DNA from: a virus
Lineage: Duplodnaviria; Caudoviricetes
IMG/VR virus record: IMGVR_UViG_3300032216_001520
Location: 1-49,590 of that record
Strand: one strand, 5' to 3'
Length of the DNA stretch: 49,590 nucleotides
Shown: positions 27,462-48,826 of the stretch, in pieces
Layout: each line of letters starts with the position of its first letter
How positions within the stretch are numbered: the first letter of the stretch is position 1
Program-made: the position numbers and the translations under genes
Notes under the pieces: model-generated
The model's database searches: none
The model's input: the letters and a program-made list of their open reading frames with translations, nothing else
Told to the model about the DNA's origin: nothing

Positions 27462-30242
27462 ATGGCAAATACAGTATCAACTATAAGTTATGCCAATACA
27501 TTTGGTCAATGGATGATTGCGACAGATGCTCTTATTGGTGAAAACAATACATTAGCAAAAGGCGATTATACAAAAGATACGGGTACAATTTATCTTTCTG
27601 AAACAACCAAAAACGCATTACAATCAAACGGTAATATCGTTGTTCAAAAAGAACTTCTGGTTCAAGGTCCAGGTTCATCTGCCACCATCGATAATAATTT
27701 GACAGCTTATGGTCAAGTTTATTTTTCGAATAGTATATTAGGTTTAACAAACTCTGGTCAAGCAAATATTAATGGTCTTTTGGTTGCACAAGGACCAAAT
27801 ACAGGTCTATATGTTGCTAATTCCGCTTATGTTGGTGGTAATACAACAATCGCTTACAATACAATAACAAATACTGTACAAGCCAATTCATCTGTTGTAA
27901 CTGGTTCATTAAAAGCCAATACAAATGTACTTACAGGTTCATTACAAGCTAACACAAATGTACTTACAGGTTCATTACAGGCAAATACATCTGTTTTGAC
28001 CGGTGCATTAACTTCAAACACTTCTGTATTAACCGACACACTACAATCTAGCACATCGATTGTAACTAGTATTCTACAAGCCAATACATCTATTGTGACT
28101 GGCACAGTAAAAGCTAACACCTCTATTATGACTGATGTATTACAAGCAAATACGTCAACAAATACACAAATCTCTAGTGTAACACAATCAGCCTATGCTG
28201 ATAAGGTACAAGCTAATACTTCTATCTTGACTGGTACATTACAAGCTAATACTTCAACCAATACCGCCACAGCTTCTGTAGCTGGTACCACATTCACAAA
28301 AGTATTACAAGCAAACACATCAATTAATACTCCAATTATTTCTGTTTCAAATAGTGTAATTGCAAATGATGTTAAAGCAAACAATATAATCAGTACACCA
28401 TCTTTATTAAGTGATACAATTACCGCTAATACCAGTGCATCAGTACCAACACTTACTGTTAGCACAAAGCTTGATGGTAATAATGCAGCTGTATTTGTTA
28501 ACAGTTTACAAGTACAAGGCGGTGGCTTAAGTGTTAATGGTAATTTCACACTTACTGGTACAACAGTTTACGCTTCAAATACATTCCAATTAAGTACTGG
28601 TGTAACATCTGCTATTTCTAGTTATATACAAGTTGACCGTGGTTCTTCTGGTGTAAATGCAGCGATTCGTTGGAGTGAACCTTCATTGTATTGGGAAACA
28701 CTTGATGTAACAGGTAATATCTATTCTCGTATTATTACTGAAAGTTACTTGGCAAACCAAACAGGTTCTTATGCAAATACAGCATTTATAAAGGCAAATT
28801 CTGCATACCAGTCACAGAATACAACTGGTGTGTATGCTAATTCGGCGTTCTCTGCAGCAAATTCAGCCAGTTTGTATGCTAATGCTGCTTTTATACAGGC
28901 AAATTCTGCTTTTGCTGCTGCGAATAACGTAGCACCACAACTTCAGCCAACTTTCTTACAAGCAAATTCTGCTTTCATCAAAGCAAACTCGGCTTATGAA
29001 TCACAGAACACAACTGGTGTATATGCTAACTCAGCATTCTCCTCAGCAAATTCAGCCAGTTTGTATGCCAATTCTGCTTTCTTACAGGCAAACGCAGCAT
29101 TTGCATCGGCCAACAACGTAGCACCACAAGTTCAACCGATTTTCAATCAGGCAAATGCTGCATTTATCAAAGCAAACTCAGCTTATGCCTTGGCAAATAC
29201 ATTTGCAAACACATTTGTTGGTACTACAGGTTCTGTTTCACAGAGTTCTGGTGTAATTTCATTCTCAAGTAATAATGGTTTAACTATTGTTGCCACTTCT
29301 GCTAACAATTTAGCAATCAGTACATCACAAGACCTGAGAACAACTGGTTCACCTACATTTGTTGGTGCAACATTCAGTCAACCAGTTATTGCCACTACGA
29401 TGGCTACAAGTACATCAAATACTGCTCTGGCCACAACGGCATATGTACAGAATTTGACAAATAATTCTGGTACATTGACCACAAATATTACAGGTAATTC
29501 TGGAACAGTAACCAATGGTGTTTATGTAAATGGTTCTTATGCTGATCCATCTTGGATAACATCTCTTGCCAATACAAAAATAACTGGTGTGATGACTGCT
29601 GGCCAGTTGGCGACTACATCAGTTGCAGCCGCATCATATGGTTCAGCAAGTTACGTATCTAGATTTACTGTTGATGCACAAGGTCGTCTAACATCAGCAA
29701 ACTCTGTGGCAATCGCAATTGCTTCTGGTGCTGTTTCTGGTTTGGCCACATCAGCCACAACAGACACGACAAACGCAACTAATATTACTTCCGGTACATT
29801 ATCTGCAGCAAGATTGCAATACACTATGGACCAAGCGGTAGCAACAGGATCCAATGTCCAACACAATTCTATAGGTGTTGGTACGGCTGCTACGGGTACT
29901 GCTGGTGAGATTCGAGCAACAAATGAGATTACGGCCTATTATAATACTTCGGATAGGAGACTGAAGGAAAACTTAATTCCTTTGGAAGATATTTTAGATG
30001 ATTTAATTGAATTATCAACATATTACTTTAATTATAAAACTAGACCAGGTAAACAAATGATTGGTGTTATGGCTCAAGATTTAATGCAAAAATTCCCTGA
30101 ATTGGTATATGAAACAGCTCCGTTGGATGAAAATACTGGTTTGGAAAAAATCTATGCTGTTAATTATGAATTGTTATCGGTTCTTGTGTTACAAGGTTTG
30201 AGAGATTTGACTAAAGAAGTTCGGGCATTGAAGAATTCCTAA
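27462..30242 (+). CDS. Tail fibre protein with C-terminal intramolecular chaperone (peptidase S74-like)
   Basis: ANTF.QW N-terminus, repeat-rich shaft, VDAQGR.T motif, EITAYY.SDRRLKEN cleavage motif, IGVMAQD, VNYE, terminal coiled coil. Confidence 0.85.
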   Translation: MANTVSTISYANTFGQWMIATDALIGENNTLAKGDYTKDTGTIYLSETTKNALQSNGNIVVQKELLVQGPGSSATIDNNLTAYGQVYFSNSILGLTNSGQANINGLLVAQGPNTGLYVANSAYVGGNTTIAYNTITNTVQANSSVVTGSLKANTNVLTGSLQANTNVLTGSLQANTSVLTGALTSNTSVLTDTLQSSTSIVTSILQANTSIVTGTVKANTSIMTDVLQANTSTNTQISSVTQSAYADKVQANTSILTGTLQANTSTNTATASVAGTTFTKVLQANTSINTPIISVSNSVIANDVKANNIISTPSLLSDTITANTSASVPTLTVSTKLDGNNAAVFVNSLQVQGGGLSVNGNFTLTGTTVYASNTFQLSTGVTSAISSYIQVDRGSSGVNAAIRWSEPSLYWETLDVTGNIYSRIITESYLANQTGSYANTAFIKANSAYQSQNTTGVYANSAFSAANSASLYANAAFIQANSAFAAANNVAPQLQPTFLQANSAFIKANSAYESQNTTGVYANSAFSSANSASLYANSAFLQANAAFASANNVAPQVQPIFNQANAAFIKANSAYALANTFANTFVGTTGSVSQSSGVISFSSNNGLTIVATSANNLAISTSQDLRTTGSPTFVGATFSQPVIATTMATSTSNTALATTAYVQNLTNNSGTLTTNITGNSGTVTNGVYVNGSYADPSWITSLANTKITGVMTAGQLATTSVAAASYGSASYVSRFTVDAQGRLTSANSVAIAIASGAVSGLATSATTDTTNATNITSGTLSAARLQYTMDQAVATGSNVQHNSIGVGTAATGTAGEIRATNEITAYYNTSDRRLKENLIPLEDILDDLIELSTYYFNYKTRPGKQMIGVMAQDLMQKFPELVYETAPLDENTGLEKIYAVNYELLSVLVLQGLRDLTKEVRALKNS
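27875..28330 (+). repeat. Coding 33-bp / 11-aa tandem repeats (GSLQANTSVLT type)
   Basis: GSLKANTNVLT, GSLQANTNVLT, GSLQANTSVLT, GALTSNTSVLT... visible in protein and DNA; boundaries approximate. Confidence 0.85.
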
Positions 30243-30311
30243 AATTTCGAAATTTTGCGTTCCGGCCCGAGAATTTTCTCCGACAGCTTCAGGATTCCAA
30301 AAAGTGAATCC
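30241..30311. other. Intergenic element with three inverted repeats and a GC-rich core
   Basis: AAAATTTCGAAATTTT perfect palindrome (30241-30256); GAGAA-TT-TTCTC (30269-30280); GGATTC-N8-GAATCC (30292-30311). Confidence 0.7.
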
Positions 30312-30320
30312 ACTCTTAGA

Positions 30321-30327
30321 CTAAATA
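30321..30327 (+). promoter_or_regulatory. Late promoter (CTAAATA)
   Basis: Intergenic, 23 nt before the ATG at 30351. Confidence 0.65.
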
Positions 30328-30350
30328 TTAGATAACTATAACAAAAAATT

Positions 30351-30692
30351 ATGTCAGCAGCTTACACCGAACTATTCTTAGAACAAGGAACAGATTTTTA
30401 CACCTCCATTACGTTGGATGATGTAAATGGTGACCCATATGATTTGACAGGTGTTGCTGCCAAAGGCCAAATCAAGAAATCTTACTATTCTACCAACGAA
30501 ACCTCACATTTTACAATAACGATTAATGATCCACCAACGGGTGTCATTAATATGTCTGTACCATCAGCAAACACAGCTAATATTGCTGCGGGTCGTTATG
30601 TTTATGACGTAATTATTAAAGATACTGCAAATAATGTGACGAGGGTTCTGGAAGGTATCGTGAATGTTATACCACAAGTTAGTAAATTTTAA
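30351..30692 (+). CDS. Virion structural protein, Ig-like (BppU-N-like) adaptor
   Basis: L.LEQG.DF, P.DLTG, Q.KKSY.S, GRYVYDV, RVLEG.V.V.P.V pattern common in T4-like fibre clusters. Confidence 0.7.
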   Translation: MSAAYTELFLEQGTDFYTSITLDDVNGDPYDLTGVAAKGQIKKSYYSTNETSHFTITINDPPTGVINMSVPSANTANIAAGRYVYDVIIKDTANNVTRVLEGIVNVIPQVSKF

Positions 30693-30701
30693 GGTATAGA
30701 G

Positions 30702-30926
30702 ATGCCAGCGAATCCAATTAATACAATCAGAGTCCAAGTAGGAAACCAATTTGGACCAACAGTCCGTAATATTGCTTACGGCACCAAGACACTCAAAAGT
30801 GCCACAGACTTGTCTTTGGCTGGTGCTCAAGACGGAGATGTTATTGCCTATAATGCTGCGAATAACAATTTCTATGTAACAAATTCCACAACAAATCTTG
30901 CGGATATAGATGCGGGGTTCTTTTAA
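30702..30926 (+). CDS. Small fibre connector ending IDAGFF
   Basis: L....D.....QDGDVI.Y trimerisation-like motif; C-terminal DAGFF. Confidence 0.7.
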   Translation: MPANPINTIRVQVGNQFGPTVRNIAYGTKTLKSATDLSLAGAQDGDVIAYNAANNNFYVTNSTTNLADIDAGFF

Positions 30927-31121
30927 ATGGCAAATACGACCATTCAGATTCTCCGTTCTTATAACCATGATGCACCAAATACACTACATGACGGTGAATT
31001 AGCATATTCATTCACTTCAAACACACTATATATTGGTAACAATGCCAATGGGGTAATCGCTATTGCTGGTGAGGGTTATATTGCTAACGTAATTAATCCA
31101 ATTGACGGTGGCAGTTTTTAA
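30927..31121 (+). CDS. Minimal Mtd_N/hyaluronidase-N-like domain protein ending IDGGSF (64 aa)
   Basis: IQILRS....P..L.DGELAYS...NTLYIG plus DGGSF. Confidence 0.75.
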   Translation: MANTTIQILRSYNHDAPNTLHDGELAYSFTSNTLYIGNNANGVIAIAGEGYIANVINPIDGGSF

Positions 31122-31127
31122 TAAATA
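31121..31127 (+). promoter_or_regulatory. Late promoter (ATAAATA)
   Basis: Intergenic, upstream of 31161. Confidence 0.6.
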
Positions 31128-31160
31128 GAAGAATAACTATAATAATAAAAGGGAATAAAA

Positions 31161-31385
31161 ATGACTTACACTCATAATCCAGCAGATCCAATGGTGGTTT
31201 TGGCAACAACAGCCAAGTCATTAGTTGACCAATTCAATTCCAAAGCAATCACATTACAACAATTTAAAGATTCTATGAATGCACAAGTTGTTCCTAATGT
31301 GGCTGGTTTGAATAAGAGTAGCAAGAATGACGATGCATGGCATACAATCTGTAATGCTGTGGCAATGGTCGGCGCTCCAGACTAA
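31161..31385 (+). CDS. Small helical hypothetical protein (paralog of 34616)
   Basis: SD AAGGG; shares TAxSLxxQxNSxxITxxxF/YxxSM with 34616. Confidence 0.7.
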   Translation: MTYTHNPADPMVVLATTAKSLVDQFNSKAITLQQFKDSMNAQVVPNVAGLNKSSKNDDAWHTICNAVAMVGAPD

Positions 31386-31425
31386 TAACAAAAAATCTAC
31401 AAAACAATAATAATAAGGGTAGAAA

Positions 31426-34400
31426 ATGGCATCCAATACACAAATCTTCATTAAACGCTCCTTAGCGAATACCACACCTGGTAATTTACATATAGGTGAG
31501 TTAGCATATTCATATGCATCCAATACCCTGTTTATTGGCGCTAACACTGCTACAGGTCCTGGTTACTACAAAATTGGTGGTGAATACTATACCAATATTA
31601 TTGATTCGGCAACTTCAGCCAATACACCAGACACACTAGTAATCAGAGATGGTAACGGTGACTTTGCCGCAGGTAATGTTACTGCCGCTTACTTTATTGG
31701 TGATGGTTCTGCTCTTACCGGTTTGGTTACAAACCTGACTGTTGATGGTGATTCTGGTGGTCCAAATACTATCAATCTGTTAACAGACACACTAACAATC
31801 GCTGGTGGTGAAGGTTTAACGTCAAATGTTGATGGCAATACAATAACTTTAGATGTTGATGACACAGTTGTTCGTTCTAATACAGAAGGTGCTTCACAAC
31901 ACATCAACACAGACGTTCAAATTTCTGGCAATTTGACTGTTCAGGGTACTACAACATATGTAGAATCACAAATCAATCAAACAAACGATTCGTTAATTGA
32001 ACTTGCTGCCAACAACACAATTGGTGACGTACTTGATATTGGTTTCTACGGCAAACACGAAGGTGCTGATGGTACAGTTGTAACCGGTTTGGTTCGTAAC
32101 GCTGGTACATCAGACTTCTATTTGTTTGATAATATTGCTCTGGGTGACCAAGAAAACTTAACATCCAATATCATTACACAAAGTGCTTTGTCTGCCAACG
32201 GTGCATCATTGTATGCTAAGCAATTCTTTGCTGCTGATATGGGTCAAGATGGCGGTTATGCTTTCAATACGGCTTCAAATACCGGTTTATTCTCAGACGT
32301 AAATGATTCAGATATCTATTTGACTATTAATGGCGACAAAGTTCTGAATGCTAATAATGAACTGAATAATTATTCACTAGGTCAATTTGCCGGTGAAATC
32401 GACCAGTCTGAAGGTGCAATTGCTGTTGGTTATTATGCTGGTAATGAATCACAAAATTACAATGCTATTGCTATCGGTAAACTTGCTGGTAACTACCAAC
32501 AATCAGGTAATTCAGTTTCAATTGGCGCACATGCTGGTAACTATCAACAAGATATATCTGCTGTTGCAATTGGTGCTGGTGCAGGTGAAACAAGTCAATC
32601 ATTTAGTGGCGTAGCTATCGGTCGTTGGGCTGGTCAAGATAGTCAAGGTTGGGATTCAGTTGCCGTTGGTCGTAGAGCAGGTCGTGTATCTCAAGGTGAT
32701 TACTCTGTTGCCATGGGTTGGGCTGCTGGTGTAGATTATCAAGGATATGGTGCTGTTGCAATTGGTGAATTAAGTGGTTCTGGTAACCAAGGCGGATATG
32801 CTGTTGCAATTGGTTCTGAAGCAGGTAATACATCACAAGGATGGGGTGCTACCGCAATTGGTAGAAGTGCTGGTAATTCAAATCAAGGAACAGTTGCAAC
32901 TGCTATTGGTTCAGATGCTGGTCGTTATGACCAGGGTAGAAATTCTGTTGCTATTGGTCGTAGGACTGGTGAAACAACACAAGGCGAATATTCAGTTGCA
33001 TTAGGTAATAGAGCAGGTCAATACCAACAAGGTAATAATGCAATTGCAATCGGTTCACTTGCTGGTCAAGAAAACCAACATGAAAATTCTATTGTTCTGA
33101 ATGCTTCTGGTGACGAATTGAATGGTAGTCAAGATGCTGGTCTTTACATTGATCCAATCCGTGCTAACAATGCAACAGGTGGTAATGTTACTGCTTACAA
33201 CACATCAACTAAAGAACTTGTTTCTACTGATGTAACAATCAATAACTCTGGTATCACATTAGCAAACGGTACAGTCATCTCTGATGGTGAATCTGGTCTG
33301 TTTGTTGATTCACTCAATGTTGCTGTAACAGCAAATGTTGCTTATTATAATGCTGTGACGCATGAAATTACATATGGAGCAGCAGCATCAGGAAATGCAA
33401 TTTCAAATGGCGCACACACTTGGACTGTTTCTGCTGACACAGGTGCAATATATTCTGATTTGGGCACAGCACTTGCTTGCTCAGCAAATAGTGTTCTACT
33501 CGGTAACAATATAGATTACACAAACGATAATTATGGTCGTGTTGCAATTGGTATTGATGCTGCTGCTTCAGGTCAAAATAGTGGTTCTGTTGCAATTGGT
33601 GAAGGTGCTGGTAATTCAAATCAAAACTATGATTCAGTTGCAGTCGGTCATAATGCCGGTAATACCAATCAAAACTACTTTGCTACTGCTGTAGGTTACA
33701 ATGCTGGTCAAGGTTATCAAGGTACAAACTCTGTTGCTATCGGTCATGCTGCCGCTCAAAATTACCAAGATGGTAGTTCTGTTGCAGTAGGTTTTGCTGC
33801 TGGTAATGACCATCAAGGTTATCAAGCAGTTGCTGTTGGTCGCCGTGCTGGTCGTACTTATCAAGGTGATTATTCAACAGCTATTGGTACTTATGCTGGT
33901 CAAGACACTCAAAACCAATATGCTGTGGCAGTAGGTTATCAAGCAGGTCAAACTCATCAAGGCCATGGCGCAATCGCTATCGGTGACACCGCTGGTAATA
34001 ATTATCAAAGCACAGATACTATTGCAATCGGTACTTATGCCGGTGAAAATTCTGCAAACACTAACGGCTGGGCACCTATTGCCATCGGTCGTTATGCTGG
34101 TCAAGAATATGCCGGTTCACAATCCGTTTCGATTGGTAACCGTGCCGGTGCTAATAACATAGGTTATCATGCAGTTGCTTTAGGTCATTACGCTGGTAAT
34201 GAAGGTTTAGGTGATTATGGTATTGCAATTGGTGATAATGCTGGTTATACGGCAGGTGAAGGCACTATCATAATGGGTTCCGATGCTGGTTATCAAGCAA
34301 ATAATTACTCTATCGCAATCGGTCACGAAGCAGGTTACTACGCTAGTACATCTGGATTAGGTGATTATCAGATTGCTCTTGGTTATCGTGCAGCGTATGA

Positions 34401-34590
34401 CCACGGTTTCAACAACAGTATTGTATTGAATGCTTCTGGTTCGGATTTGAGTGCTAGTGCATCTGGTTTGTATGTCAATCCAATCCGTTATACTGAAACT
34501 CAAGACAATACATATGATGGTTTGGTGTTCTATAACTCTGATACAAAAGAAGTTCGTTACTCATATGCATTAGATGGCGGTTCATTCTAA
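31426..34590 (+). CDS. Long fibre/adhesin: Mtd_N-like N-terminus, two YadA-head-like repeat tracts, C-terminal DGGSF
   Basis: IFIKRS...GELAYSY; 14-aa (S/A)VAIGxxAGxxxQG repeats; ends YALDGGSF. Confidence 0.85.
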   Translation: MASNTQIFIKRSLANTTPGNLHIGELAYSYASNTLFIGANTATGPGYYKIGGEYYTNIIDSATSANTPDTLVIRDGNGDFAAGNVTAAYFIGDGSALTGLVTNLTVDGDSGGPNTINLLTDTLTIAGGEGLTSNVDGNTITLDVDDTVVRSNTEGASQHINTDVQISGNLTVQGTTTYVESQINQTNDSLIELAANNTIGDVLDIGFYGKHEGADGTVVTGLVRNAGTSDFYLFDNIALGDQENLTSNIITQSALSANGASLYAKQFFAADMGQDGGYAFNTASNTGLFSDVNDSDIYLTINGDKVLNANNELNNYSLGQFAGEIDQSEGAIAVGYYAGNESQNYNAIAIGKLAGNYQQSGNSVSIGAHAGNYQQDISAVAIGAGAGETSQSFSGVAIGRWAGQDSQGWDSVAVGRRAGRVSQGDYSVAMGWAAGVDYQGYGAVAIGELSGSGNQGGYAVAIGSEAGNTSQGWGATAIGRSAGNSNQGTVATAIGSDAGRYDQGRNSVAIGRRTGETTQGEYSVALGNRAGQYQQGNNAIAIGSLAGQENQHENSIVLNASGDELNGSQDAGLYIDPIRANNATGGNVTAYNTSTKELVSTDVTINNSGITLANGTVISDGESGLFVDSLNVAVTANVAYYNAVTHEITYGAAASGNAISNGAHTWTVSADTGAIYSDLGTALACSANSVLLGNNIDYTNDNYGRVAIGIDAAASGQNSGSVAIGEGAGNSNQNYDSVAVGHNAGNTNQNYFATAVGYNAGQGYQGTNSVAIGHAAAQNYQDGSSVAVGFAAGNDHQGYQAVAVGRRAGRTYQGDYSTAIGTYAGQDTQNQYAVAVGYQAGQTHQGHGAIAIGDTAGNNYQSTDTIAIGTYAGENSANTNGWAPIAIGRYAGQEYAGSQSVSIGNRAGANNIGYHAVALGHYAGNEGLGDYGIAIGDNAGYTAGEGTIIMGSDAGYQANNYSIAIGHEAGYYASTSGLGDYQIALGYRAAYDHGFNNSIVLNASGSDLSASASGLYVNPIRYTETQDNTYDGLVFYNSDTKEVRYSYALDGGSF
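32371..33110 (+). repeat. Coding 42-bp / 14-aa beta-roll repeats, tract 1
   Basis: Repeated xVAIGxxAGxxxQG units; boundaries approximate. Confidence 0.85.
33490..34440 (+). repeat. Coding 42-bp / 14-aa beta-roll repeats, tract 2
   Basis: Same unit; both tracts close with NSIVLNASG...GLYxxPIR; boundaries approximate. Confidence 0.85.
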
Positions 34591-34615
34591 TCATTAATAA
34601 TCAAAGGAAAATAAA

Positions 34616-34843
34616 ATGGCAATCTCAGCTAACACACTAGGTGATACAGCGACTTCTTTAATGAGTCAATTAAATTCTGGCACAATCACATTTGAAAATT
34701 ACCGTACTTCTATGAGTTCGGTAATTGAATCTGCGAAAAATAATGAAGAGTTTAAAAATGAAGACAACGCAGAAGCAATTCATAATGTGAATATTGCTAT
34801 TCGTTTAACTCAAGGTGAAGCACCATCAACTCGTAGAAGGTAA
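34616..34843 (+). CDS. Small helical hypothetical protein (paralog of 31161)
   Basis: SD AAGGA; shared motif with 31161. Confidence 0.7.
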   Translation: MAISANTLGDTATSLMSQLNSGTITFENYRTSMSSVIESAKNNEEFKNEDNAEAIHNVNIAIRLTQGEAPSTRRR

Positions 34844-34885
34844 TTTTTTGTTGTCTATATAATGTATTAATAATAGGAGTTTGAG

Positions 34886-35596
34886 ATGAGTCAGGAAAAG
34901 TATAGCACATATTATGTTGAGTTGTTGACATCCACATTTAATGACCAGATTCTTCAAAACCTTTCACTAAAAGCCAACGCAAAGGTTAATGCTGAAATTT
35001 TTGAAGAAGTCTCTAAAGGTTATCAGACATTATTGGATGAAAACAATTCTTTAAAATTGGAAAAAGAGAAATCTTTATCTGAGAAAGAATCTGCAAAAAA
35101 TGGTGAGATTGAAAATTTAAAGAAACAACTTGTTGATTTACAGGCTTCTAAGAATAATGAAATAGAAAAATTAAGGCAACAAGTTTCTCAAACTCAAGCG
35201 ACTAAAAATAATGATGTGAATGAACTCATTAAGAAGAATACGGAACAATTGCAGCAGGTTCAATCAACCAAAAATAATGAAATCCAAGAACTGAATAAAA
35301 CGATTGTTGGTTTGAGAGATGAGATTACCAAAGCAGGTTTGATTCGTACCGAATATGATAAGTTGAAACATCAATTAAGTCATATGGATACTTTTAGAAC
35401 ACAATTGGTTGAACTCCAGAAATTGGTTGAAGAAAAGAATGCCACGATTGATGATTTAAATTCTCAGATTGAAACCTTGAAAACTATTCCTACTACTCCT
35501 GTGAAGCGAAAGAAAAGTAATATTGAAAAAATGATTACAGTTGAACCAGAGGCAACTCTTTTTGCAGACGAAACAAGGGACGGCGGAAGTTTTTAA
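34886..35596 (+). CDS. Lys/Glu-rich coiled-coil protein ending RDGGSF
   Basis: SD AGGAG; ~18-aa KNNEI repeats; C-terminal DGGSF. Confidence 0.8.
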   Translation: MSQEKYSTYYVELLTSTFNDQILQNLSLKANAKVNAEIFEEVSKGYQTLLDENNSLKLEKEKSLSEKESAKNGEIENLKKQLVDLQASKNNEIEKLRQQVSQTQATKNNDVNELIKKNTEQLQQVQSTKNNEIQELNKTIVGLRDEITKAGLIRTEYDKLKHQLSHMDTFRTQLVELQKLVEEKNATIDDLNSQIETLKTIPTTPVKRKKSNIEKMITVEPEATLFADETRDGGSF

Positions 35597-35600
35597 GTAA

Positions 35601-37475
35601 ATGTCAAACACATCAATCCAGTTAAAAAAATCAGGCATATCAGGTAACACACCAGTAGATTTAGTTCACGGTGAGGTTGCTTTAAACTATGCCGATGGAA
35701 GACTGTATTATAAAGATGGTGTAGATGGCCTATCATACATCTATAACCAAGATACTTTTGCAACTGTTAATGCTAACGGTTCTCTAGTAATCGCAAGTTC
35801 ACCTACAGACATACTATCAATTATTCCTGGTAATAATGTTAGTATCACGGCGAACAACTCATCAAAGACAATCAAATTTGATTCGACACCAACATTAACA
35901 CATGTAAACACGGCAGGTTATATTCTACCTGCCGACACTACTGTTCCTGGTGAACCTGTAGTCAACTTGAATGATGGACGTATGTTCATCCAGTTGGGTA
36001 ACGGAAAAGTTGTTGACATATCTTCAACACCAGTAGGTAAAACTTTTTATGTTTCAACTAATGGTAACGATGACCTAGTAGGTGATACACCTGGTTCTGC
36101 CAAGGCAACTATCAGAGCAGCCATCGCTGCAGCAAGTCCAGGTGATGCCGTGATTGTAACATCTGGAATCTATGTAGAGAAAACACCTATTATTATTCCA
36201 CAGAATGTACAAGTACAAGGTTCAGGTGAAAGAACTTGTATCATACAACCACAAACATCGGCCAATGATATCTTCTGGATGAATAACAATAGTTATGTCA
36301 CAGGTTTCAAATTCCAAAGTTACACAGGTTCAGCAATCGCTTTTCCAAATCGTGTAATTGCAACAGGTAACTTTGCTGATGTAAGTGGAAACACATTCTC
36401 ACTAATCGATATTGATCCAGAACCATATGACAACTACTATAACAGTATGTCTGTTACTATTACTTCTGGTACAGGTGTGGGACAAACGTCAAATATTATT
36501 GCATATAATGGTTCAACAAATATTGCCACACTAGATGTTGCATGGGCACCTGCTATACCAAACGAATCTTCTGTATTTGAATTGAAGATTCCACGGAGAA
36601 CTGTACCAGCGGCATCAAACAAACGATACTCAACCTATATTACCGGCAGTCCGTACATCTATAACAGTTCATCTGTAACAACTACTGGAACAGGTATTAA
36701 GGTTGACGGTGACTTGGCCACGGGTAACAAGAGTATGATATCTGCTCAGTTCACTCAGGTCAATTCTGGTGGTATAGGCATACACATTTTAAATGATGGT
36801 TACTCTCAGTTGGTTTCCATGTATAGTATATTCTGTGACATAGGATTCTTGGCAGAATCTGGTGGCACGGCATCTATGGGTAACTGTAACGTAAACTTTG
36901 GTAACAGAGGACTGGTTGCCAATGGTAAAGGCAAGTTAGCAATGACTGCTACTATTGCTAACACAAGCAACCAACAATCATATACGATAGACCTAAATAA
37001 TGTTGTAGCAAATACTGATTTAGGTATAGCAGCAACAATTCCATATACTGGTTTGATTATGTTGGTTGATGGTGATACAGCAGGTCAATATTATTCTGTA
37101 TCATCGGCAACTACATTGGTTGGTGGAAACACAACAGTAACTTTTGGTACTGCTGTGGCGAATTCATTTACAAGTGGAACAAATGTGTCGTTCTACCAAC
37201 AGAGTCAACTCAGAGCTTCTGGACAAACATTTGAATATGTTGGTGCAGGTACAGATATACATGCCATACCTAGATTAGGTGGCATAGCAAATTCTGAGAA
37301 TCAAATTGTTGTGATAGGTGAAGGTGCAGTGTATGCTACAGCGACAGACCAAAGTGGTAATTTTACTGTTTCTGATTTAACTATCAATCAAGAATCATCA
37401 ACGATTACCGGAAGAACATTTACGAAGAGTCTTTTTGCTGAATTGACTCCTTACATATTGGCACTAGAAGGTTAA
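35601..37475 (+). CDS. Virion protein with two Mtd_N-like motifs and a pectin-lyase-like beta-helix
   Basis: IQLKKS..GEVALNYADG.LYYK and GEPVVN.NDG.MF; FYVSTNGNDD..G....AKATI.AA, G.YVE..PI..P, SPYI.N, FTQ.N.GG.G, QLVS...I.C; ends TPYILALE. Confidence 0.78.
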   Translation: MSNTSIQLKKSGISGNTPVDLVHGEVALNYADGRLYYKDGVDGLSYIYNQDTFATVNANGSLVIASSPTDILSIIPGNNVSITANNSSKTIKFDSTPTLTHVNTAGYILPADTTVPGEPVVNLNDGRMFIQLGNGKVVDISSTPVGKTFYVSTNGNDDLVGDTPGSAKATIRAAIAAASPGDAVIVTSGIYVEKTPIIIPQNVQVQGSGERTCIIQPQTSANDIFWMNNNSYVTGFKFQSYTGSAIAFPNRVIATGNFADVSGNTFSLIDIDPEPYDNYYNSMSVTITSGTGVGQTSNIIAYNGSTNIATLDVAWAPAIPNESSVFELKIPRRTVPAASNKRYSTYITGSPYIYNSSSVTTTGTGIKVDGDLATGNKSMISAQFTQVNSGGIGIHILNDGYSQLVSMYSIFCDIGFLAESGGTASMGNCNVNFGNRGLVANGKGKLAMTATIANTSNQQSYTIDLNNVVANTDLGIAATIPYTGLIMLVDGDTAGQYYSVSSATTLVGGNTTVTFGTAVANSFTSGTNVSFYQQSQLRASGQTFEYVGAGTDIHAIPRLGGIANSENQIVVIGEGAVYATATDQSGNFTVSDLTINQESSTITGRTFTKSLFAELTPYILALEG

Positions 37476-37479
37476 TAAG

Positions 37480-37824
37480 ATGGCACAAATTCCATTAAAC
37501 ACATTTAAAACAACAACTTTTGATATACTAACATCGGAAGAAAATGTTTATACCACACCGGCTGGAGTCACGACAGTAGTTTTAATGGCACAGGTTGCAA
37601 ACATATCTGAAGAAACAATTCATATTTCAGCAAATCATGTTAGAGATTCACAAAAAACAGCAATCATTAAAGATGCTAGTGTTCCAACACATGATTCATT
37701 ATCTCTTTTGACAGGTAAATTAATATTACAAACTGGAGATACCTTCAGTATACAGGCAACCAACGGTACTACGGCTGGCCAATCTCAATTATTGTTGTCA
37801 TATCTAGAGACAGCAAATCAATAA
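37480..37824 (+). CDS. Small beta-sandwich virion adaptor (114 aa)
   Basis: PLNTFKT, VYT.P.G.TTVVLMAQVAN, GKLILQTGD, LSYLETAN pattern. Confidence 0.7.
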   Translation: MAQIPLNTFKTTTFDILTSEENVYTTPAGVTTVVLMAQVANISEETIHISANHVRDSQKTAIIKDASVPTHDSLSLLTGKLILQTGDTFSIQATNGTTAGQSQLLLSYLETANQ

Positions 37825-37827
37825 ACT

Positions 37828-38856
37828 ATGAGTACCAAATCAAGACTTACCAGCGGAAGAGTACCAGTAAGGGACTCGGCTAATGTCGAGTCCAGTAGAT
37901 ATCAGTTTTTGGATTTAAGTTCTGCTGAACCGAATTTAGGTACAAGTACCAATGGTGATATATTAACTTATAATACCACTTCTCCTGGTCAGAGACAATG
38001 GATTTCACAAACAAGTACTGCTAGTTATTTACTTGCACAAGATGCTTATAATGAAGCAAATACAAAGGTAAGTAAATCCGGCGATACAATGACCGGTGAC
38101 TTGAATGTTCAGTCGGCAAATGTCCGTGCTGACAATATCATTGTAAACAGAACTCTATATTCTGGTCTGGCCACGGCAGCTGCTACACCACTCCCTAACC
38201 TGATTGCACAGTTTACAGGTAACACCGACTCCTATGTACAGGTTAATGCACAGAACATTGACCCACATGGTTCTGCTGACTTTGTGGTTACTGCTGACGT
38301 TGGTAATGATACTACATTCTATATTGATATGGGTATCCAAGGTTCTCAATTAGAACAAGGTGCCTTATATCCATTGGATGGTTATCTACTTGTACAAGGC
38401 AACACAGGACAACTTGGTGGTAACCTTGTAATTGGTACATTAACACAGACAGAACAAAGTCAGGCAATACATTTTGTTGTTGGTGGAAATGAAGAAAGTA
38501 ATGTAGTCGTTGTTATGAATGCCAACGAAATGAATGTCAAAACTGACATATATATTTCTGGTAACATTGCTACACCACAACATTCAAATCTAGAAGGTTT
38601 CACACAGGCTGCCTTCAATAAAGCAAACTCAGCCTACACATTAGCACAGAACGCATACGAACAAGCAAATACTGGTGGTGGTACCGGTGGTGTTAGTGTA
38701 ACCACATTGTTCCATTTCCCAACTGGTGATTATGGATATGTATTAGAATCTCTATACGGTGGCGATGGTATGGAAAATATCAGTCCAATGTACGATATGA
38801 GGATTGATCCTGTTGTAGCAGGTTTAATCTCGATAGACCTCGGAAGCGTAGCATAA
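37828..38856 (+). CDS. Fibre connector protein ending IDLGSVA
   Basis: SGRV, L..AEPNLG, V.KSGDTMTGDL, short ANSA segment, C-terminal DYG and DLG motifs. Confidence 0.72.
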   Translation: MSTKSRLTSGRVPVRDSANVESSRYQFLDLSSAEPNLGTSTNGDILTYNTTSPGQRQWISQTSTASYLLAQDAYNEANTKVSKSGDTMTGDLNVQSANVRADNIIVNRTLYSGLATAAATPLPNLIAQFTGNTDSYVQVNAQNIDPHGSADFVVTADVGNDTTFYIDMGIQGSQLEQGALYPLDGYLLVQGNTGQLGGNLVIGTLTQTEQSQAIHFVVGGNEESNVVVVMNANEMNVKTDIYISGNIATPQHSNLEGFTQAAFNKANSAYTLAQNAYEQANTGGGTGGVSVTTLFHFPTGDYGYVLESLYGGDGMENISPMYDMRIDPVVAGLISIDLGSVA

Positions 38857-38859
38857 ATA
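38853..38859 (+). promoter_or_regulatory. Late promoter (ATAAATA)
   Basis: Overlaps the stop codon, upstream of 38889. Confidence 0.6.
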
Positions 38860-38888
38860 AATAAGAAGTCATATTAGGAATTTAAAGA

Positions 38889-41800
38889 ATGCCAACACAA
38901 TTACAATTCAGACGAGGTAATACCGCACAGACTGCCATATTTACTGGTGCTGTGGCGGAACTTACCGTAGATACAGACAAACAAACCATTGTTGTACATG
39001 ACGGTGTAACTACTGGTGGTAATCCTCTTGCTACAATGTCATTTGCTCAGGCTGCCTATGATGCAGCCAACAATGCTGGTTCAAATGATATTGTTACATC
39101 AGCATTCTTAAAAGCAAATGCAGCATTCGTACAGGCCAATGCAGCATATTACAGTCAAAATACTACAGGCGTATATGCTAACTCAGCGTATGGTCAGGCA
39201 AATACAGCAACACTCCTCGCTCAGTCTGCCTACGATTCTGCTAATAATGTAACTCCACAAATTCAGCCTTCATTTAATAAAGCTAATGCTGCTTTTGATG
39301 CGGCAAATACAGCATATACCGCTGCATCTAATTCTTATAACTTCACTACACAAGTTAACCTGTTTGCCAATGCGTCATTTGAACAGGCAAATTCTGCTGC
39401 ATCATATGCTAACGGTGCTTTCCGTCAAGCCAATGCATCGTTTAACACAGCCAATTCTGCTGGTTCATACGCTAACTCCTCTTTTGTACAAGCCAATTCA
39501 GCATTCTCTGTAGCAAACAACGCAGTACCTAAGGCAGGCGGTACGATGACTGGTGATTTGCTGATGACAGCAAATATTGTACCAACAGTATCAAATACTT
39601 ATTACTTGGGTAGTCCAGATAAAGTTTGGCATTCTATCTATGTTGGTCCAGGTTCTATCAATATTGATGGTATCACACTCAGTAATACTGGTGGTTCACT
39701 TGTAGTTACTACTGCAAGCGGTACATCATCTGACGTACAACAAATTTATAATGCTGCCAATTCAGCAGGTTCATATGCTAACTCTGCCTTCCTTGGTGCC
39801 AATGCAGCATTTGGTCAAGCAAACTCAGCAGCATCATATGCCAACTCTGCCTTCTCAGCGGCTAACACCGCAGATTCTAAGGCAGTCACAGCAGGTTCAT
39901 ATGCCAACTCTGCCTTCTCAGCGGCTAACACCGCAGATTCTAAGGCAGTCACAGCAGGTTCATATGCTAATTCAGCATATACCGCAGCAAATACGGCAGA
40001 CTCTAAGGCTGTATCGGCAGGTTCATATGCCAATTCGGCATTTGTTACTGCCAATTCTGCTGGTTCATATGCTAATTCTGCCTTCTCAGCAGCTAATTCA
40101 AAATTCAGTTCATCTGGTGGTACAATCACAGGTGATACAACTGTTACTGGTAATCTTACTGTAACTGGTACAACATTCTACGCCAATACAGTTAACTTAC
40201 TTGTTCAAGATAACATCATTACATTGAACTCTAATGTAACTGGTACACCAACACAAGATTCTGGTGTTGAAGTTAATCGTGGTAATCAAGCAAACACATC
40301 TTTAGTATGGAAAGAATCTGTAAAATCTTGGCAGTTCACTAATGATGGTACAACATATAGTAACATAGCATCTTCATCAGCAGAAACATATGCCAACTCG
40401 GCATTTGGTAAAGCAAATGCTTCGTTTGGTACTGCTAACTCAGCAGCACTATATGCTAACGCAGCATTTGCACAAGCCAATGCAGCATTCGAATCAGCAA
40501 ACAACGTAGCACCACAAGTTGCGCCAGCATTTGGTACTGCTAACTCTGCAGCATTGTATGCTAATTCGGCATTTGTGCAAGCCAATTCTGCTTTTGGTAC
40601 TGCCAACTCAGCAGCAAGTTATGGTAACTCTGCCTTTACCGCAGCAAACACAGCCGATTCTAAGGCAGTTACTGCTGGTTCATATGCCAACTCGGCATTC
40701 ACAACTGCTAATACTGCTGTAAGTAATGCAGCAGGTGCTTCTCTGTATGCTAATGGTGCTTTCACACAAGCAAACGCAGCATTCACGGCAGCCAATACTG
40801 CTGACTCTAAGGCAGTCACATCTGGTTCTTATGCTAACTCAGCATTTAGTACCGCTAATTCTGCTAGTGTATATGCCAACGGTGCCTTCTTACAAGCAAA
40901 TGCTTCTTACGGTCAGGCAAATTCTGCTGGTTCTTATGCTAACTCTGCTTTCACGGCAGCCAATACAGCAGATAGCAAAGCAGTTACTGCTGGTTCTTAT
41001 GCCAATTCGGCTTTCTCTGCTGCCAATACGGCAGACTCTAAGGCTGTATCAGCAGGTTCATACGCTAATGCCGCTTTCTTACAGGCAAATTCAGCATACA
41101 GTAAAGCAAATACAAATGCTAGTGACATTACCACAATTCAAGGTGTCGACCTTACACAGAATACAAACATTACTGCTGCTGATACAAAAGCACAAGCTGC
41201 TTATAACAAAGCAAATACTGGTGGCACATTAACTGGTGCCACACATATCACCGATACAACACAATCAACCACAGATACAAACGGTGCATTGATTGTTGAT
41301 GGTGGTCTTGGTGTTGCCAAGAATTTGAATGTTGGTGGTGATGCAGTTATTACAGGTTCATTGACAGTTGTTGGTGGTACAACATCAACATCTTCCACAA
41401 CTATTACATACGCAAATCCATACATATCATTACACGATCCAGCTGGTAATACATACATATCAACTAATGATGGTGTAGATATTGGTGTTCAATATGAATA
41501 TTTTGATGATGTAGGTGCAGCATGTGTTGTTACAGGTGGTTCTGGTAACGGAACAACAGCAACACTTACTATATCAGATAGATTTATTTCACCAGTTGGT
41601 GAAGTGATACAAATTTCTGGTGTATCACCATCAGGTTTCAATGGTTCATATGTTGTTACAGCATCAAGTGCAGGTTCAGTTTCGTTCTTAAATCCAACAA
41701 ATGCTTCTGTTGTTACATCAGGCGCTTTGGGTAATGCAAAACGAATAACACAAGTACCATTAAATTCAGGTACTTGGTCATCACAAGATGCTAATGTAGC

Positions 41801-44555
41801 ATTCACAGATGGTGCAACAGGTTGCACATTGCCTACAGGTAAATGGGTAACTATTACAGGTTGCACGCCGGCAAAATACAATGGAACATACTTGATTAAA
41901 ACATCGGGTCCAGGTTATATTACCTACACAATCGGTAATCCAAATCCAGGATCGATAACAGTTGCCGGTACAATGATATTGGCCAATCGTCATGCCTTCT
42001 CTGGCTGGGCAAATGATTCAGGTTCTTTTGAGTTCTACAAAGCAGGTGATTTTGATGCAACAGGTTCATTTGGTGGTCTGTATGGCAGTATCAAGGCAGG
42101 CAAGTTAATTGCTTCAGCACCACAATCAATAAGTGCTGCCGACTTAACTGCTGGTGGTTTCTTACAAGTACCAACAACAAAAATTTATGATGTTACATCA
42201 GCACCAAATGCAACTGTTGCACAAGTTGCTTCTGTTGCTAGTCTTGGTGTTGTAACAATTGATGCAGCAAATACAGGTATAACATATACCAACGGCGCAA
42301 CATTGTATATTGCTGGGGCACCTGTTGCTGGTAACAATACTACTTTTGCTGGTAATACATACTCACTTGAAGTTGCTTCTGGTAAGACATGGTTCGGTGG
42401 TGATGTAGAATTCCATACTGCTAACGGTATCACATTCTATGACTCTACTAAACAGTCTACGGCTGCTGCACCATACGCATACTCAAACGCTTCGTTCTTA
42501 CAGGCAAATACAGGATTCGGTACTGCCAACTCAGCAGCAACTTATGCTAACGGTGCTTTCTTACAAGCAAATGCTTCGTTTGGTACTGCCAATTCTTCAG
42601 CATCATATGCTAACTCTGCTTTCTTGGCTGCCAATACGGCAGATTCTAAGGCAGTCACCGCTGGTAACTACGCTAACTCAGCATATACTCAGGCAAATAC
42701 TGCAACAACCAATGCAGCAACAGCTGATGCCAAGGCAGTAACAGCTGGTTCATATGCCAATTCTGCTTACACACAAGCAAATACAGCAACCACTAACGCA
42801 GCAACTGCCGATTCTAAGGCAGTCACAGCAGGTAACTATGCTAACTCAGCATACACACAGGCAAATACTGCTACTACAAATGCTGCTACGGCAGATGCCA
42901 AGGCAGTTACTGCTGGTTCATACGCTAACGCTGCCTTCTTACAAGCAAATACAGGATTTGGTACTGCTAACTCCGCTGCAAGTTATGCTAACTCTGCCTT
43001 CTTGGCTGCTAATACGGCAGATTCTAAGGCAGTAACATCAGGTTCATATGCTAACTCTGCTTTCTCAGCTGCCAATACTGCTGACTCTAAGGCCGTAAGT
43101 GCTGGTTCATATGCCAATTCATCATTCACAACTGCTAACTCGGCAGGTTCATATGCCAACTCAGCATTTACGTCTGCTAACTCTGCTGGATCATATGCCA
43201 ACTCGGCCTTTGTACAGGCAAACTCAGCATTCACAACTGCTAATAACGCACTACCAAAAGCAGGTGGTACAATTACTGGTGACTTGGCCATTAGCGGTAA
43301 CTTAACTGTCTCTGGTACTCAGACATTTGTTAATACAACAACTGTAAGTACAAATGATTCATTGATTCAATTGGCTGCCAATAATACAGTAGGCGATGCA
43401 GTTGATATCGGTTTCTATGGTGTAGTAAATACAGGCTCAGTAACCTATACAGGTCTTGCTCGTCAAGCAGGTACAAATACATATCTGTTGTTCAAAGGAT
43501 TACAAAACAATCCTACAGGCAACTCTCTGGCTGCTGGTTCATTGACCGCAGCAAATGCCGCTACATTGGTTGCTAACGTAGCAGGTTACTCTATCACAAG
43601 TAACGGTGTAGATTTATTCGTATACACAACAAATGCCTACACACAGGCAAATACTGGTGTAACCAACGCAGCAACAGCAGATGCCAAGGCAGTTACTGCT
43701 GGCAGTTATGCCAACTCAGCATTCGGTACTGCTAACTCAGCAGCAAGTTATGCCAACTCTGCCTTCTCAGCTGCTAATACTGCTGACTCTAAGGCAGTTA
43801 CTGCTGGCAGTTATGCTAACTCTGCCTACACTCAGGCAAACACAGCAACTACGAATGCCGCTACGGCAGATTCTAAGGCAGTTACTGCTGGATCGTATGC
43901 CAATTCAGCATACACACAAGCAAATACTGCCACAACAAATGCCGCTACGGCAGATGCCAAGGCAGTAACAGCAGGCTCATACGCTAACTCAGCATTTGGT
44001 ACTGCCAATTCTGCCGCTTCTTATGCCAACTCAGCATTCTTACAGGCAAATACAGGATTTGGTACTGCTAACTCAGCAGCAACTTACGCTAACGGTGCTT
44101 TCTTACAGGCTAATTCAGCATTCACAACTGCTAACAACGCCTTACCTAAAGCAGGTGGTGCATTAAGTGGTGTCGTTTCTTCTAACAGTTTGATTGTTGC
44201 TTCGTCATTAACATCTAATACTACCATCTCATTGAATGGTGTTGGATACAATACAAGTAACACATTTACCACATCAAGTGTATCACAAGTTACGGTCGAC
44301 TCTTTTGCAACGACTACATATAGGAGTGCTAAGTACTTTGTACAGATGACTTCTAGTACAAATTACCATGTAATTGAGTTATCAATAGTACATGATGGCA
44401 CAACTGTTTCAATGGCACAATATGGTGAAGTATTTACGAGTGCATCATTGGGTACCTTTGATGCAAGTATTTCAACTGGTATAGTAAACTTATTGTTCAC
44501 ACCAACAAATTCTGCAACAACAGTTAAACTAGTGAGAACAAATATTGTAGTGTAA
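38889..44555 (+). CDS. Giant fibre protein (1888 aa): Mtd_N-like N-terminus, Ala/Asn-rich heptad stalks, C-terminal RSAKY domain
   Basis: MPTQLQFRRG....FTG...ELTVDTDK..VVHDG; many ANSAF/ANTA heptads; LPKAGGT.TG.L nodes; DSF....YRSAKY.VQ...HDG....QYG C-terminus. Confidence 0.85.
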   Translation: MPTQLQFRRGNTAQTAIFTGAVAELTVDTDKQTIVVHDGVTTGGNPLATMSFAQAAYDAANNAGSNDIVTSAFLKANAAFVQANAAYYSQNTTGVYANSAYGQANTATLLAQSAYDSANNVTPQIQPSFNKANAAFDAANTAYTAASNSYNFTTQVNLFANASFEQANSAASYANGAFRQANASFNTANSAGSYANSSFVQANSAFSVANNAVPKAGGTMTGDLLMTANIVPTVSNTYYLGSPDKVWHSIYVGPGSINIDGITLSNTGGSLVVTTASGTSSDVQQIYNAANSAGSYANSAFLGANAAFGQANSAASYANSAFSAANTADSKAVTAGSYANSAFSAANTADSKAVTAGSYANSAYTAANTADSKAVSAGSYANSAFVTANSAGSYANSAFSAANSKFSSSGGTITGDTTVTGNLTVTGTTFYANTVNLLVQDNIITLNSNVTGTPTQDSGVEVNRGNQANTSLVWKESVKSWQFTNDGTTYSNIASSSAETYANSAFGKANASFGTANSAALYANAAFAQANAAFESANNVAPQVAPAFGTANSAALYANSAFVQANSAFGTANSAASYGNSAFTAANTADSKAVTAGSYANSAFTTANTAVSNAAGASLYANGAFTQANAAFTAANTADSKAVTSGSYANSAFSTANSASVYANGAFLQANASYGQANSAGSYANSAFTAANTADSKAVTAGSYANSAFSAANTADSKAVSAGSYANAAFLQANSAYSKANTNASDITTIQGVDLTQNTNITAADTKAQAAYNKANTGGTLTGATHITDTTQSTTDTNGALIVDGGLGVAKNLNVGGDAVITGSLTVVGGTTSTSSTTITYANPYISLHDPAGNTYISTNDGVDIGVQYEYFDDVGAACVVTGGSGNGTTATLTISDRFISPVGEVIQISGVSPSGFNGSYVVTASSAGSVSFLNPTNASVVTSGALGNAKRITQVPLNSGTWSSQDANVAFTDGATGCTLPTGKWVTITGCTPAKYNGTYLIKTSGPGYITYTIGNPNPGSITVAGTMILANRHAFSGWANDSGSFEFYKAGDFDATGSFGGLYGSIKAGKLIASAPQSISAADLTAGGFLQVPTTKIYDVTSAPNATVAQVASVASLGVVTIDAANTGITYTNGATLYIAGAPVAGNNTTFAGNTYSLEVASGKTWFGGDVEFHTANGITFYDSTKQSTAAAPYAYSNASFLQANTGFGTANSAATYANGAFLQANASFGTANSSASYANSAFLAANTADSKAVTAGNYANSAYTQANTATTNAATADAKAVTAGSYANSAYTQANTATTNAATADSKAVTAGNYANSAYTQANTATTNAATADAKAVTAGSYANAAFLQANTGFGTANSAASYANSAFLAANTADSKAVTSGSYANSAFSAANTADSKAVSAGSYANSSFTTANSAGSYANSAFTSANSAGSYANSAFVQANSAFTTANNALPKAGGTITGDLAISGNLTVSGTQTFVNTTTVSTNDSLIQLAANNTVGDAVDIGFYGVVNTGSVTYTGLARQAGTNTYLLFKGLQNNPTGNSLAAGSLTAANAATLVANVAGYSITSNGVDLFVYTTNAYTQANTGVTNAATADAKAVTAGSYANSAFGTANSAASYANSAFSAANTADSKAVTAGSYANSAYTQANTATTNAATADSKAVTAGSYANSAYTQANTATTNAATADAKAVTAGSYANSAFGTANSAASYANSAFLQANTGFGTANSAATYANGAFLQANSAFTTANNALPKAGGALSGVVSSNSLIVASSLTSNTTISLNGVGYNTSNTFTTSSVSQVTVDSFATTTYRSAKYFVQMTSSTNYHVIELSIVHDGTTVSMAQYGEVFTSASLGTFDASISTGIVNLLFTPTNSATTVKLVRTNIVV
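39834..39967 (+). repeat. Perfect 63-bp tandem duplication within the ANSA stalk
   Basis: TCATATGCCAACTCTGCCTTCTCAGCGGCTAACACCGCAGATTCTAAGGCAGTCACAGCAGGT twice, plus TCATATGC. Confidence 0.9.
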
Positions 44556-44579: not shown

Positions 44580-45149
44580 ATGAGAGGTGAATGGTGTTAC
44601 TTTAAGAACCATTTTACTCCTGAGGAATGCAAATCAATCCTAGAAATGGGATTATTATTGCCTGCTCAGGAGGCAAAATTAGGACCAGATGGTGAAGCCC
44701 AGCACGATAGCTGGCGCAAAAGCAAAATACGTTTTATCAAAAAAGAACATACTCAATTTGAGTGGTTGTTTGATAGAATGTGGAAGATGGCCATTCGTGC
44801 CAATGATGACTGGTTTGATTTTCATTTATCAAAGATTGACTACATGCAACTGGCAGAATACGACTCTGCCTATCAAGGTGAATACAAAAAACACCACGAT
44901 GTATTCTGGATGAACAACGATCCAAAATACCATAGAAAAGTCTCCGCTGTCGTACAACTTACCGATCCATCCGAATATGAAGGTGGTAACTTTGAGGTAT
45001 TTGCCGACCAGAAGCCAAATGCCGATGAACTACGTACACAAGGCACAGCAATCTTTATTCCCTCGTTCCTAGACCACCAGGCGACTCAGGTTACATCTGG
45101 TGTTAGATACAGTCTAGCGTGTTGGTTCGATGGTCCTAAGTGGAAGTAA
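44580..45149 (+). CDS. 2OG-Fe(II) dioxygenase (prolyl-hydroxylase/PKHD-like)
   Basis: R.S, Q.AEY, HxD (HHD), RKVS.VVQL.DP.EYEGG, F.PSF..H..T.VT.G.RYSL..W..GP. Confidence 0.92.
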   Translation: MRGEWCYFKNHFTPEECKSILEMGLLLPAQEAKLGPDGEAQHDSWRKSKIRFIKKEHTQFEWLFDRMWKMAIRANDDWFDFHLSKIDYMQLAEYDSAYQGEYKKHHDVFWMNNDPKYHRKVSAVVQLTDPSEYEGGNFEVFADQKPNADELRTQGTAIFIPSFLDHQATQVTSGVRYSLACWFDGPKWK

Positions 45150-45150
45150 T

Positions 45151-46284: not shown

Positions 46285-46287
46285 ATA
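46281..46287 (+). promoter_or_regulatory. Late promoter (CTAAATA)
   Basis: Overlaps the GT stop codon. Confidence 0.6.
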
Positions 46288-46299
46288 ATAGATAATCAA

Positions 46300-48022: not shown

Positions 48023-48027
48023 TTATT

Positions 48028-48815: not shown

Positions 48816-48826
48816 TATAAAAAAAT

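Follow-up and report, generated by a model that had tools for sequence, protein, structure and literature searches.

C-terminal plug peptides and N-terminal cap domains as probable serial joints between the fibre proteins of a T4-like phage

Results

The window, a stretch of 49,590 nucleotides from the virus record IMGVR_UViG_3300032216_001520 (Duplodnaviria; Caudoviricetes), carries a cluster of fibre genes (30,351 to 44,555, all on the plus strand and named here by their first nucleotide) in which proteins ending in short related peptides, the "plugs", lie next to proteins starting with related cap domains, the "sockets". This is a real and conserved feature, which most likely represents joints between peptide and cap that link the fibre trimers in the order of their genes. 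We are somewhat less sure that the joints are selective by subtype than that they exist, and we infer every physical contact, the order of the proteins in the particle and their location on the virion.

A first-pass annotation had named five C-termini, all of which we confirmed: IDAGFF in 30702 (plug A, DAG subtype; 30906..30923), IDGGSF in 30927, LDGGSF in 31426 (34570-34587), RDGGSF in 34886 (35576-35593) and IDLGSVA in 37828 (38833-38853). The DYG that it had placed upstream of the last of these is part of a second class-B plug, GDYGYV, at residues 300-305 (38725-38742), 36 residues upstream. The 38 plus-strand open reading frames (ORFs) of the window (14,025 amino acids) hold four instances of D[GA]GxF, all of them C-terminal. 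We compared the window with 125 related IMG/VR viral loci (cited by L numbers), a set that is related and enriched for the feature because it was collected with 30927 and the N-terminus of 38889 as queries. Within the 1,072 unique complete ORFs of these loci and the window the motif is terminal in 132, versus 0.02 expected, and internal eight times in 372,029 amino acids, so that its terminal position is not due to chance. Plugs of this type end unrelated protein families (16 clusters) and are strongly conserved: in an alignment of 39 homologues of 30702 no column is invariant except G72 and F74 of the plug, D60, G62 and F64 are invariant in 68 homologues of 30927, and GGxF is kept in 31426 while the 35 residues before it diverge (13-28% identity to most relatives).

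Four N-termini had been likened to Mtd_N, and the likeness is direct for 38889 (38889..44555), a 1888-amino-acid alanine-rich fibre and likely distal member of the chain, whose socket (residues ~1-50) matches Pfam Mtd_N (PF18454) with 42.4 bits in the whole protein (E 6.5e-11; cut-off 26.3) and 50.7 bits as an N-terminal piece. The other three lie below or outside Pfam: the 64-amino-acid socket-plus-plug adaptor 30927 (30927..31121; cap with ILRSY, C-terminal IDGGSF) scores 20.6 bits, under the gathering cut-off, and no Pfam Mtd_N match was obtained for the 1054-amino-acid fibre 31426 (31426..34590; socket at residues ~1-55, 16-residue [AS][IV][AS]xG repeats, PHROG 4636 tail spike), the 624-amino-acid fibre 35601 (35601..37475; A2 socket at its N-terminus) or the N-terminus of T4 gp37. 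Profiles built here place 30927, 31426 and 35601 in class A (193 matches) and 38889 in class B (111 matches) with zero overlap; the two classes are nonetheless homologous (HHalign probability 89.5%, E 2e-6, 38 columns), and the cap is predicted to be an Mtd-type beta-prism trimer. An AlphaFold2 (AF2) monomer model of 30927 (predicted local distance difference test, pLDDT, 77) has four strands, a helix and a low-confidence tail, and aligns with residues 5-49 of Mtd (1yu0) at a VIA-align Z of 3.0 and a root-mean-square deviation of 2.8 Å over 42 residues, a weak likeness; HylP1 and collagen XV/XVIII trimerisation domains score similarly low, and the best VIA-align Z of the model was 3.3. Foldseek returned zero matches to this model at E<=0.001. 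In 50,697 phage records tblastn found no match for 30927 either, leaving the adaptor without a close cultured relative in those records. Its sole match in a PDB sequence search, serralysin (E 5), was taken as chance.

Gene order gives evidence for the pairing. Our count covered 910 unique pairs of neighbouring plus-strand genes (ATG starts, 45 amino acids or more, gaps of at most 150 nucleotides; nine annotated reference loci left out), with plug A defined as an x-small-G-x-F tail and plug B as a D-[YLF]-G-x-[LVI] tail. Plug A is followed by socket A in 122 pairs, by socket B in none and by a non-socket gene in 50, mostly a fibre followed by a coiled coil of the 34886 type, and plug B is followed by socket B in 39, by socket A in none and by a non-socket gene in 11. 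Once stripped of their last nine residues, the upstream proteins fall into 21 unrelated clusters, with 7 A-A, 9 B-B and 0 crossed. In 113 of 122 class-A pairs the plug Asp is followed by G/A, and in 35 of 39 class-B pairs by Y/L/F; at the second position after the plug Gly, 119 of 122 class-A pairs have F and 36 of 39 class-B pairs have L/V/I. The proposals that plug genes precede socket genes and that the divergent plug sits before the divergent socket, with two specificity classes, are strongly supported by these neighbour statistics, by the co-variation, insertions, deletions and fusion described below, and by the presence of the pair at two joints of known physical contact, T4 gp36-gp37 and the BPP-1 fibre with Mtd. 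The proposed gene order holds broadly, except that a 74-amino-acid ORF (31161..31385) separates 30927 from 31426 and a 75-amino-acid ORF (34616..34843) separates 31426 from 34886.

The class code is finer than a simple division into DGG and DLG. The LRS socket of 30927-type adaptors is preceded by a non-GG (DAG-type) plug in 30 of 30 cases. GG plugs stand before the other class-A sockets in 96 of 99 cases, and 27 of 29 adaptors themselves end in a DGG plug. The LRS-socket adaptors form one clade, and where they are absent (L056, L138-L142) the 30702-type genes end in DGG. In the window, 30702 (30702..30926) encodes a 74-residue first link with a beta-strand-like N-terminus, a small fibre repeat and the DAG plug, and its stop codon is directly followed by the 30927 start ATG. 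Because its LRS socket follows non-GG plugs while its own plug is DGG, 30927 looks like a DAG-to-DGG converter, and we marked down self-polymerisation on the same counts. Elsewhere, class-B sockets with LRRGTTAEI or FRRDTT follow tandem DL tails (GSEDLNI) devoid of Gly (L010:14218, L015:16068, L082:6001, L092:2119), a possible further plug subtype.

These counts also bear on the alternative that plugs do bind caps but that class-A plugs are interchangeable, yielding mixed, branched or variable-length fibres, including homopolymers of the 64-residue protein. The three DGGxF plugs and two KRS/KKS sockets of the window do form one sequence class, 30927 does have both plug and socket, and self-polymerising bead fibres do exist in Anabaena phage A-1(L), according to the accessible part of PMC10966104. 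Moreover, at least two D[YFLWM]G copies are found in 27 of 73 tails upstream of class-B sockets versus 9 of 743 controls, and such tandem plugs would allow branching. However, gp80-82 of A-1(L) are unrelated in sequence, and the adaptor's strict preference for non-GG plugs ahead of its socket, with DGG at its own end, is not what free exchange would produce; we consider this alternative rather unlikely. The earlier idea that modular docking builds long, possibly branched or combinatorial appendages retains its modular part, which gene order, co-variation and the insertions, deletions and fusion described below support, while the sub-code favours an ordered chain over free combinatorial assembly.

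At residue level, the plug Asp and the Arg/Lys of the socket motif I-x-L-K-R-S are both present in 92 and both missing in 32 of 129 pairs, with 2 + 3 discordant (five sockets did not parse). In a FastTree tree from a short alignment, the paralogue subtrees A1 and A2 each lost the socket Arg on their own, and internalised relic sockets mostly lack the K-R pair, including the one at residues ~97-143 of 35601 (35889-36029).

Socket-plug units are gained or lost whole with the register kept. Among 46 unique clusters led by an LtfC-like gene, the 30927-type adaptor is present in 29 and absent from 17, the query favouring presence; five loci, L138-L142, lack everything from 30927 through the front part of 35601. 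In these the first plug faces a socket on the 35601 body, and that N-terminal socket is the one retained as a relic within 35601 (63% identity to L138:3396). In Vibrio phage 1.007 gp54, DLGSV is fused directly before Mtd_N; this sole fusion comes from a GenBank record, and no in-cis class-B plug-Mtd_N fusion was found in the collected loci or in 120 of 354 longer homologues.

The product of 34886 (34886..35596), a 236-residue coiled-coil-like protein with no socket and only weak coiled-coil Pfam matches, bears a plug-like tail. Genes of its type stand between a fibre and a socket in 54 unique cases, and the fibre ahead always keeps its own plug; before A2 sockets, 52 of the 54 homologues end in x-G-x-F, 46 of these with a preceding Lys. 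The pairing of 34886 with 35601 put forward by the first-pass annotation is therefore probably not a structural link: because this coiled coil has no socket, the likelier partner of 35601 is 31426, and 34886 is likely a chaperone, cap or side branch, a non-serial plug carrier. This protein also provides an argument for the proposal that the tails are recognition tags for a common chaperone, modifying enzyme or hub, with gene order left over from operon history, and it is in keeping with this that T4 fibres require the small chaperone gp57A (accessible part of PMC3004832) and that some sockets have no adjacent plug. A single hub would, however, leave unexplained both the fusion in Vibrio phage 1.007 and why plug subtype tracks the subtype of the next cap at three levels, and we judge the proposal very improbable. 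Least probable, if only by a little, is that each tail is a self-sufficient element for C-terminal trimerisation or capping of the protein that carries it, and that caps co-occur through tandem duplication of fibre genes, since the motif ends 16 unrelated clusters and varies together with the adjacent gene, and the last residues of the 30927 monomer model are of low confidence, even though fibre folding often begins at the C-terminus (accessible part of PMC3004832) and class-A caps are paralogues.

Two further proteins would complete the chain. Upstream, 30351 (30351..30692) encodes a 113-residue LtfC/T5 p132-like beta-sandwich (Pfam LtfC, PF23926, 27.2 bits at a cut-off of 27; PHROG 3304, E 5e-23), the likely virion anchor; an LtfC-like gene lies directly upstream of a 30702-type gene in most related loci, and the cultured phages P-HM1, Mosig and Melnitz have LtfC, plug, socket and plug in that order. 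Downstream, 37480 (37480..37824) encodes a 114-residue adaptor (PHROG 1276-like) with a confident single jelly-roll in AF2 (pLDDT 91.8), the best Foldseek match being the KHP40 cement protein 7dou (E 1.8e-4, template modelling score 0.62). It likely represents a third joint type: 35601 ends in the hydrophobic tail PYILALEG (37449-37472), and such a tail precedes a 37480 homologue in 42 of 44 cases (scored by eye), as well as genes in HTVC026P, Melnitz, P-SSM2 and S-SRM01. The next gene, 37828 (37828..38856), encodes a 342-residue link with a conserved SGRVP N-terminus and the class-B plugs. Fibres ending in AIALG occur directly before a gp13-like neck gene, not a jelly-roll adaptor, in L057:3127, L058:776, L060:6001 and L146:22916, and their partner may be encoded elsewhere. 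In the small podovirus-like contigs L100:4627-4830, L107:5986-6189, L109, L110 and L123, Mtd_N proteins of 67-69 residues ending in PFLL[MI]GA precede a jelly-roll adaptor, and upstream of them there is no DxG plug.

In public phage records, a plug-bearing tail precedes 11 of 18 N-terminal Mtd_N genes (from 15 of 61 matched records, picked for diversity): those of BPP-1, CRP-3, AH02, HTVC008M, S-TIP37, K437b gp53, D69, 1.021 and a Syntrophomonadaceae phage, and two of Minorna. HTVC008M gp63 ends in DLGSVA, as does 37828, before its Mtd_N gene. In the cultured podovirus Escherichia phage Minorna (L053:7249-8801) three genes form a chain of gp11 (DLGEL end), gp10 (Mtd_N, DLGVIT end) and gp9 (Mtd_N).

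A first close parallel is the T4 long tail fibre, in which trimeric gp36 binds the N-terminal region of gp37 (accessible part of PMC3004832, which names neither a plug motif nor a cap fold). As in the window, the genes are adjacent, gp36 has a plug-like end (QDFGYY) and gp37 carries a class-A cap (51 bits with our profile). In four Straboviridae picked from 1,365 matched records, gp36 ends in IDFGTF (Krischvirus), IDFGSY (Slopekvirus), LDYGTY (Acj9) or IDFGTY (Jiaodavirus) and class-A caps follow (24-46 bits), so that the signature of gp37-like cap, D-x-G-x-aromatic end and adjacent genes appears in 5 of 5 T4-family cases. The T4 gp36 plug is a hybrid, with an aromatic residue after Asp and an aromatic end, before a class-A cap, and the two-class code is accordingly graded (D[FY]Gx[FY] in the T4 family). 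T4 uses the joint once, whereas the window uses it serially, with subtypes, behind an LtfC-like gene and not gp34/gp35: searches of the 12 ORFs from 27462 to 38889 gave no PHROG or Pfam match to orthologues of T4 gp34, gp35 or gp36, apart from a weak match to a distal subunit within the S74 part of 27462.

In the second parallel, residues 1-48 of BPP-1 Mtd (PF18454, PDB 1YU0) are 69% identical to the N-terminus of 38889, and the gene directly upstream of mtd, bbp9, carries DFGSI, DYGDL and a terminal DLGGIA. Mtd is reported to sit at the fibre ends, with two Mtd trimers per fibre (accessible part of PMC2408619); we found no description of its mode of attachment in the accessible literature. 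The window differs in lacking a diversity-generating retroelement and a C-type lectin tip, 38889 being a long fibre instead. The joint most likely works like those of T4 gp36-gp37 and of the BPP-1 fibre with Mtd, to judge from the common sequence signature, and what sets the window apart is that its class-A caps lie outside Pfam Mtd_N and that the joint is used serially and with a sub-code.

Other systems are more distant. Modular docking of trimeric receptor-binding proteins, as proposed here, has been shown experimentally for the branching domain and conserved peptide of Klebsiella phages KP32/KP34 and for the XD/D1 domains of CBA120 tailspikes (PMC13352976 and PMC8825819, in their accessible parts). 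There, however, polarity is opposite, a distal N-terminal peptide or head binding a folded T4 gp10-like domain of the proximal protein, whereas in the window the proximal protein would contribute a C-terminal peptide and the distal one the N-terminal cap that receives it; sequence profiles (Pfam, PHROG) detected no gp10-like XD branching domain in the proximal proteins of the window. LtfC of DT57C anchors fibres through beta-sheet augmentation, taking up the strands at their N-termini (accessible part of PMC10713586). The LtfC that 30351 matches sits in a siphovirus tail-tip ring in T5/DT57C, whereas the window belongs to a contractile-tail T4-like phage. The neck fibre gp82-gp81-gp80 of A-1(L) likewise consists of separately encoded trimers placed head to tail in gene order (accessible part of PMC10966104), but it shares no sequence relation with either cap class and has no DxG tails, so that we rejected homology and regard it as an analogue only. 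We found no description of the plug/cap motif pair in the literature searched, most subscription papers and all supplements lying outside the search, and the accessible parts of PMC12143355, 10.64898/2026.05.12.724579 and PMC4819975 contain nothing on the joint.

Gene content (Pfam/PHROG) identifies the window as the tail module from a myovirus of T4-like type. Genes for gp5, gp25, gp6, gp8 and a VrlC-like (DUF4815) protein lie upstream of the fibre cluster, and a 926-residue fibre with a C-terminal peptidase S74 chaperone, without plug or socket, lies just upstream of the LtfC-like gene (27462-30242). The small ORFs 31161 and 34616 are paralogues (38% identity over 52 amino acids), each directly behind a DGGSF-ending gene; 31161 has neither plug nor socket, and homologues of the two occur only in L001, L056, L097 and L098 among the loci searched. 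Downstream (44580-49429), 2-oxoglutarate-Fe(II) oxygenase and GT1 glycosyltransferase genes adjoin three collagen-like (GPT/GAT) fibre genes, which suggests hydroxylation and glycosylation of phage collagen.

Discussion

We propose that the C-terminal peptides are docking plugs that bind the small cap at the N-terminus of the following fibre protein and that separately folded trimers would thereby join end to end in gene order. LtfC-like 30351 would grip the strand-like segment with which 30702 starts; the DAGxF plug of 30702 would enter the LRS socket of 30927. The DGGxF plug of 30927 would enter 31426, and the plug of 31426 would enter 35601. The hydrophobic tail of 35601 would bind the jelly-roll protein 37480, which would hold 37828, and the D[YL]GxV plugs of 37828 would bind one or more 38889 Mtd_N trimers; with the 37480 joint and the 30351 anchor, this would make a complete chain of eight proteins. 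Specificity would likely be set by the residue after the plug Asp and by the last hydrophobic residue, the Asp itself likely pairing with the socket Arg/Lys.

Several observations weigh against this reading. The structural likeness of the class-A cap to Mtd is weak (Z 3.0), the plug patterns were written after the data had been seen, and the counts are inflated because the loci are related. A matching adjacent plug is absent upstream of 8 of 130 class-A and 22 of 61 class-B sockets, three class-B pairs have a Phe-ending plug, and 34886 bears a plug with no obvious serial role. No D-aromatic/aliphatic-G motif was found in any listed ORF of the podovirus-like loci L100, L107, L109, L110 and L123, and the 67-residue Mtd_N adaptors sit behind plug-less fibres ending in MMMGA. 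In the public records, 7 of the 18 Mtd_N genes have no adjacent plug (S-SSM7, S-CAM3, S-SCSM2R, two of Phosso, D6 and K437 gp54), and the class-A-like genes of P-SSM2 and S-SRM01 are preceded by an HNH gene. The co-loss of Asp and Arg amounts to a handful of events, not 129, because it falls mostly in one genome lineage; L034 and L035 are counter-cases, NGG plugs precede Arg sockets in P-HM1, Mosig and Melnitz, and BPP-1 Mtd has FRGG.

A broader scheme, towards which we are inclined to be slightly sceptical, is a connector alphabet common to tailed phages, with one beta-prism cap fold in at least three peptide-selective subtypes (DAGxF-LRS, DGGxF-KRS and D[YLF]Gx[LVI]-Mtd_N) plus the joint between hydrophobic tail and jelly-roll. 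In this phage an LtfC ring would then be the base of an eight-protein fibre that follows the order of the genes. Branches would come from tandem plugs, explaining the two Mtd trimers per BPP-1 fibre, and the mimic plug of the coiled-coil protein would chaperone or cap sockets during assembly.

The proposed joint offers a six-residue answer to two old structural questions, namely what holds gp37 on gp36 in T4 and by what means Mtd is attached to the fibre of the Bordetella phage. It would explain how assembly survives the exchange of unrelated fibre modules, and such orthogonal trimer-to-trimer peptide joints would be useful protein-assembly parts. If true, the architecture, order and branch points of fibres would become readable from the genomes of the abundant uncultured T4-like phages.

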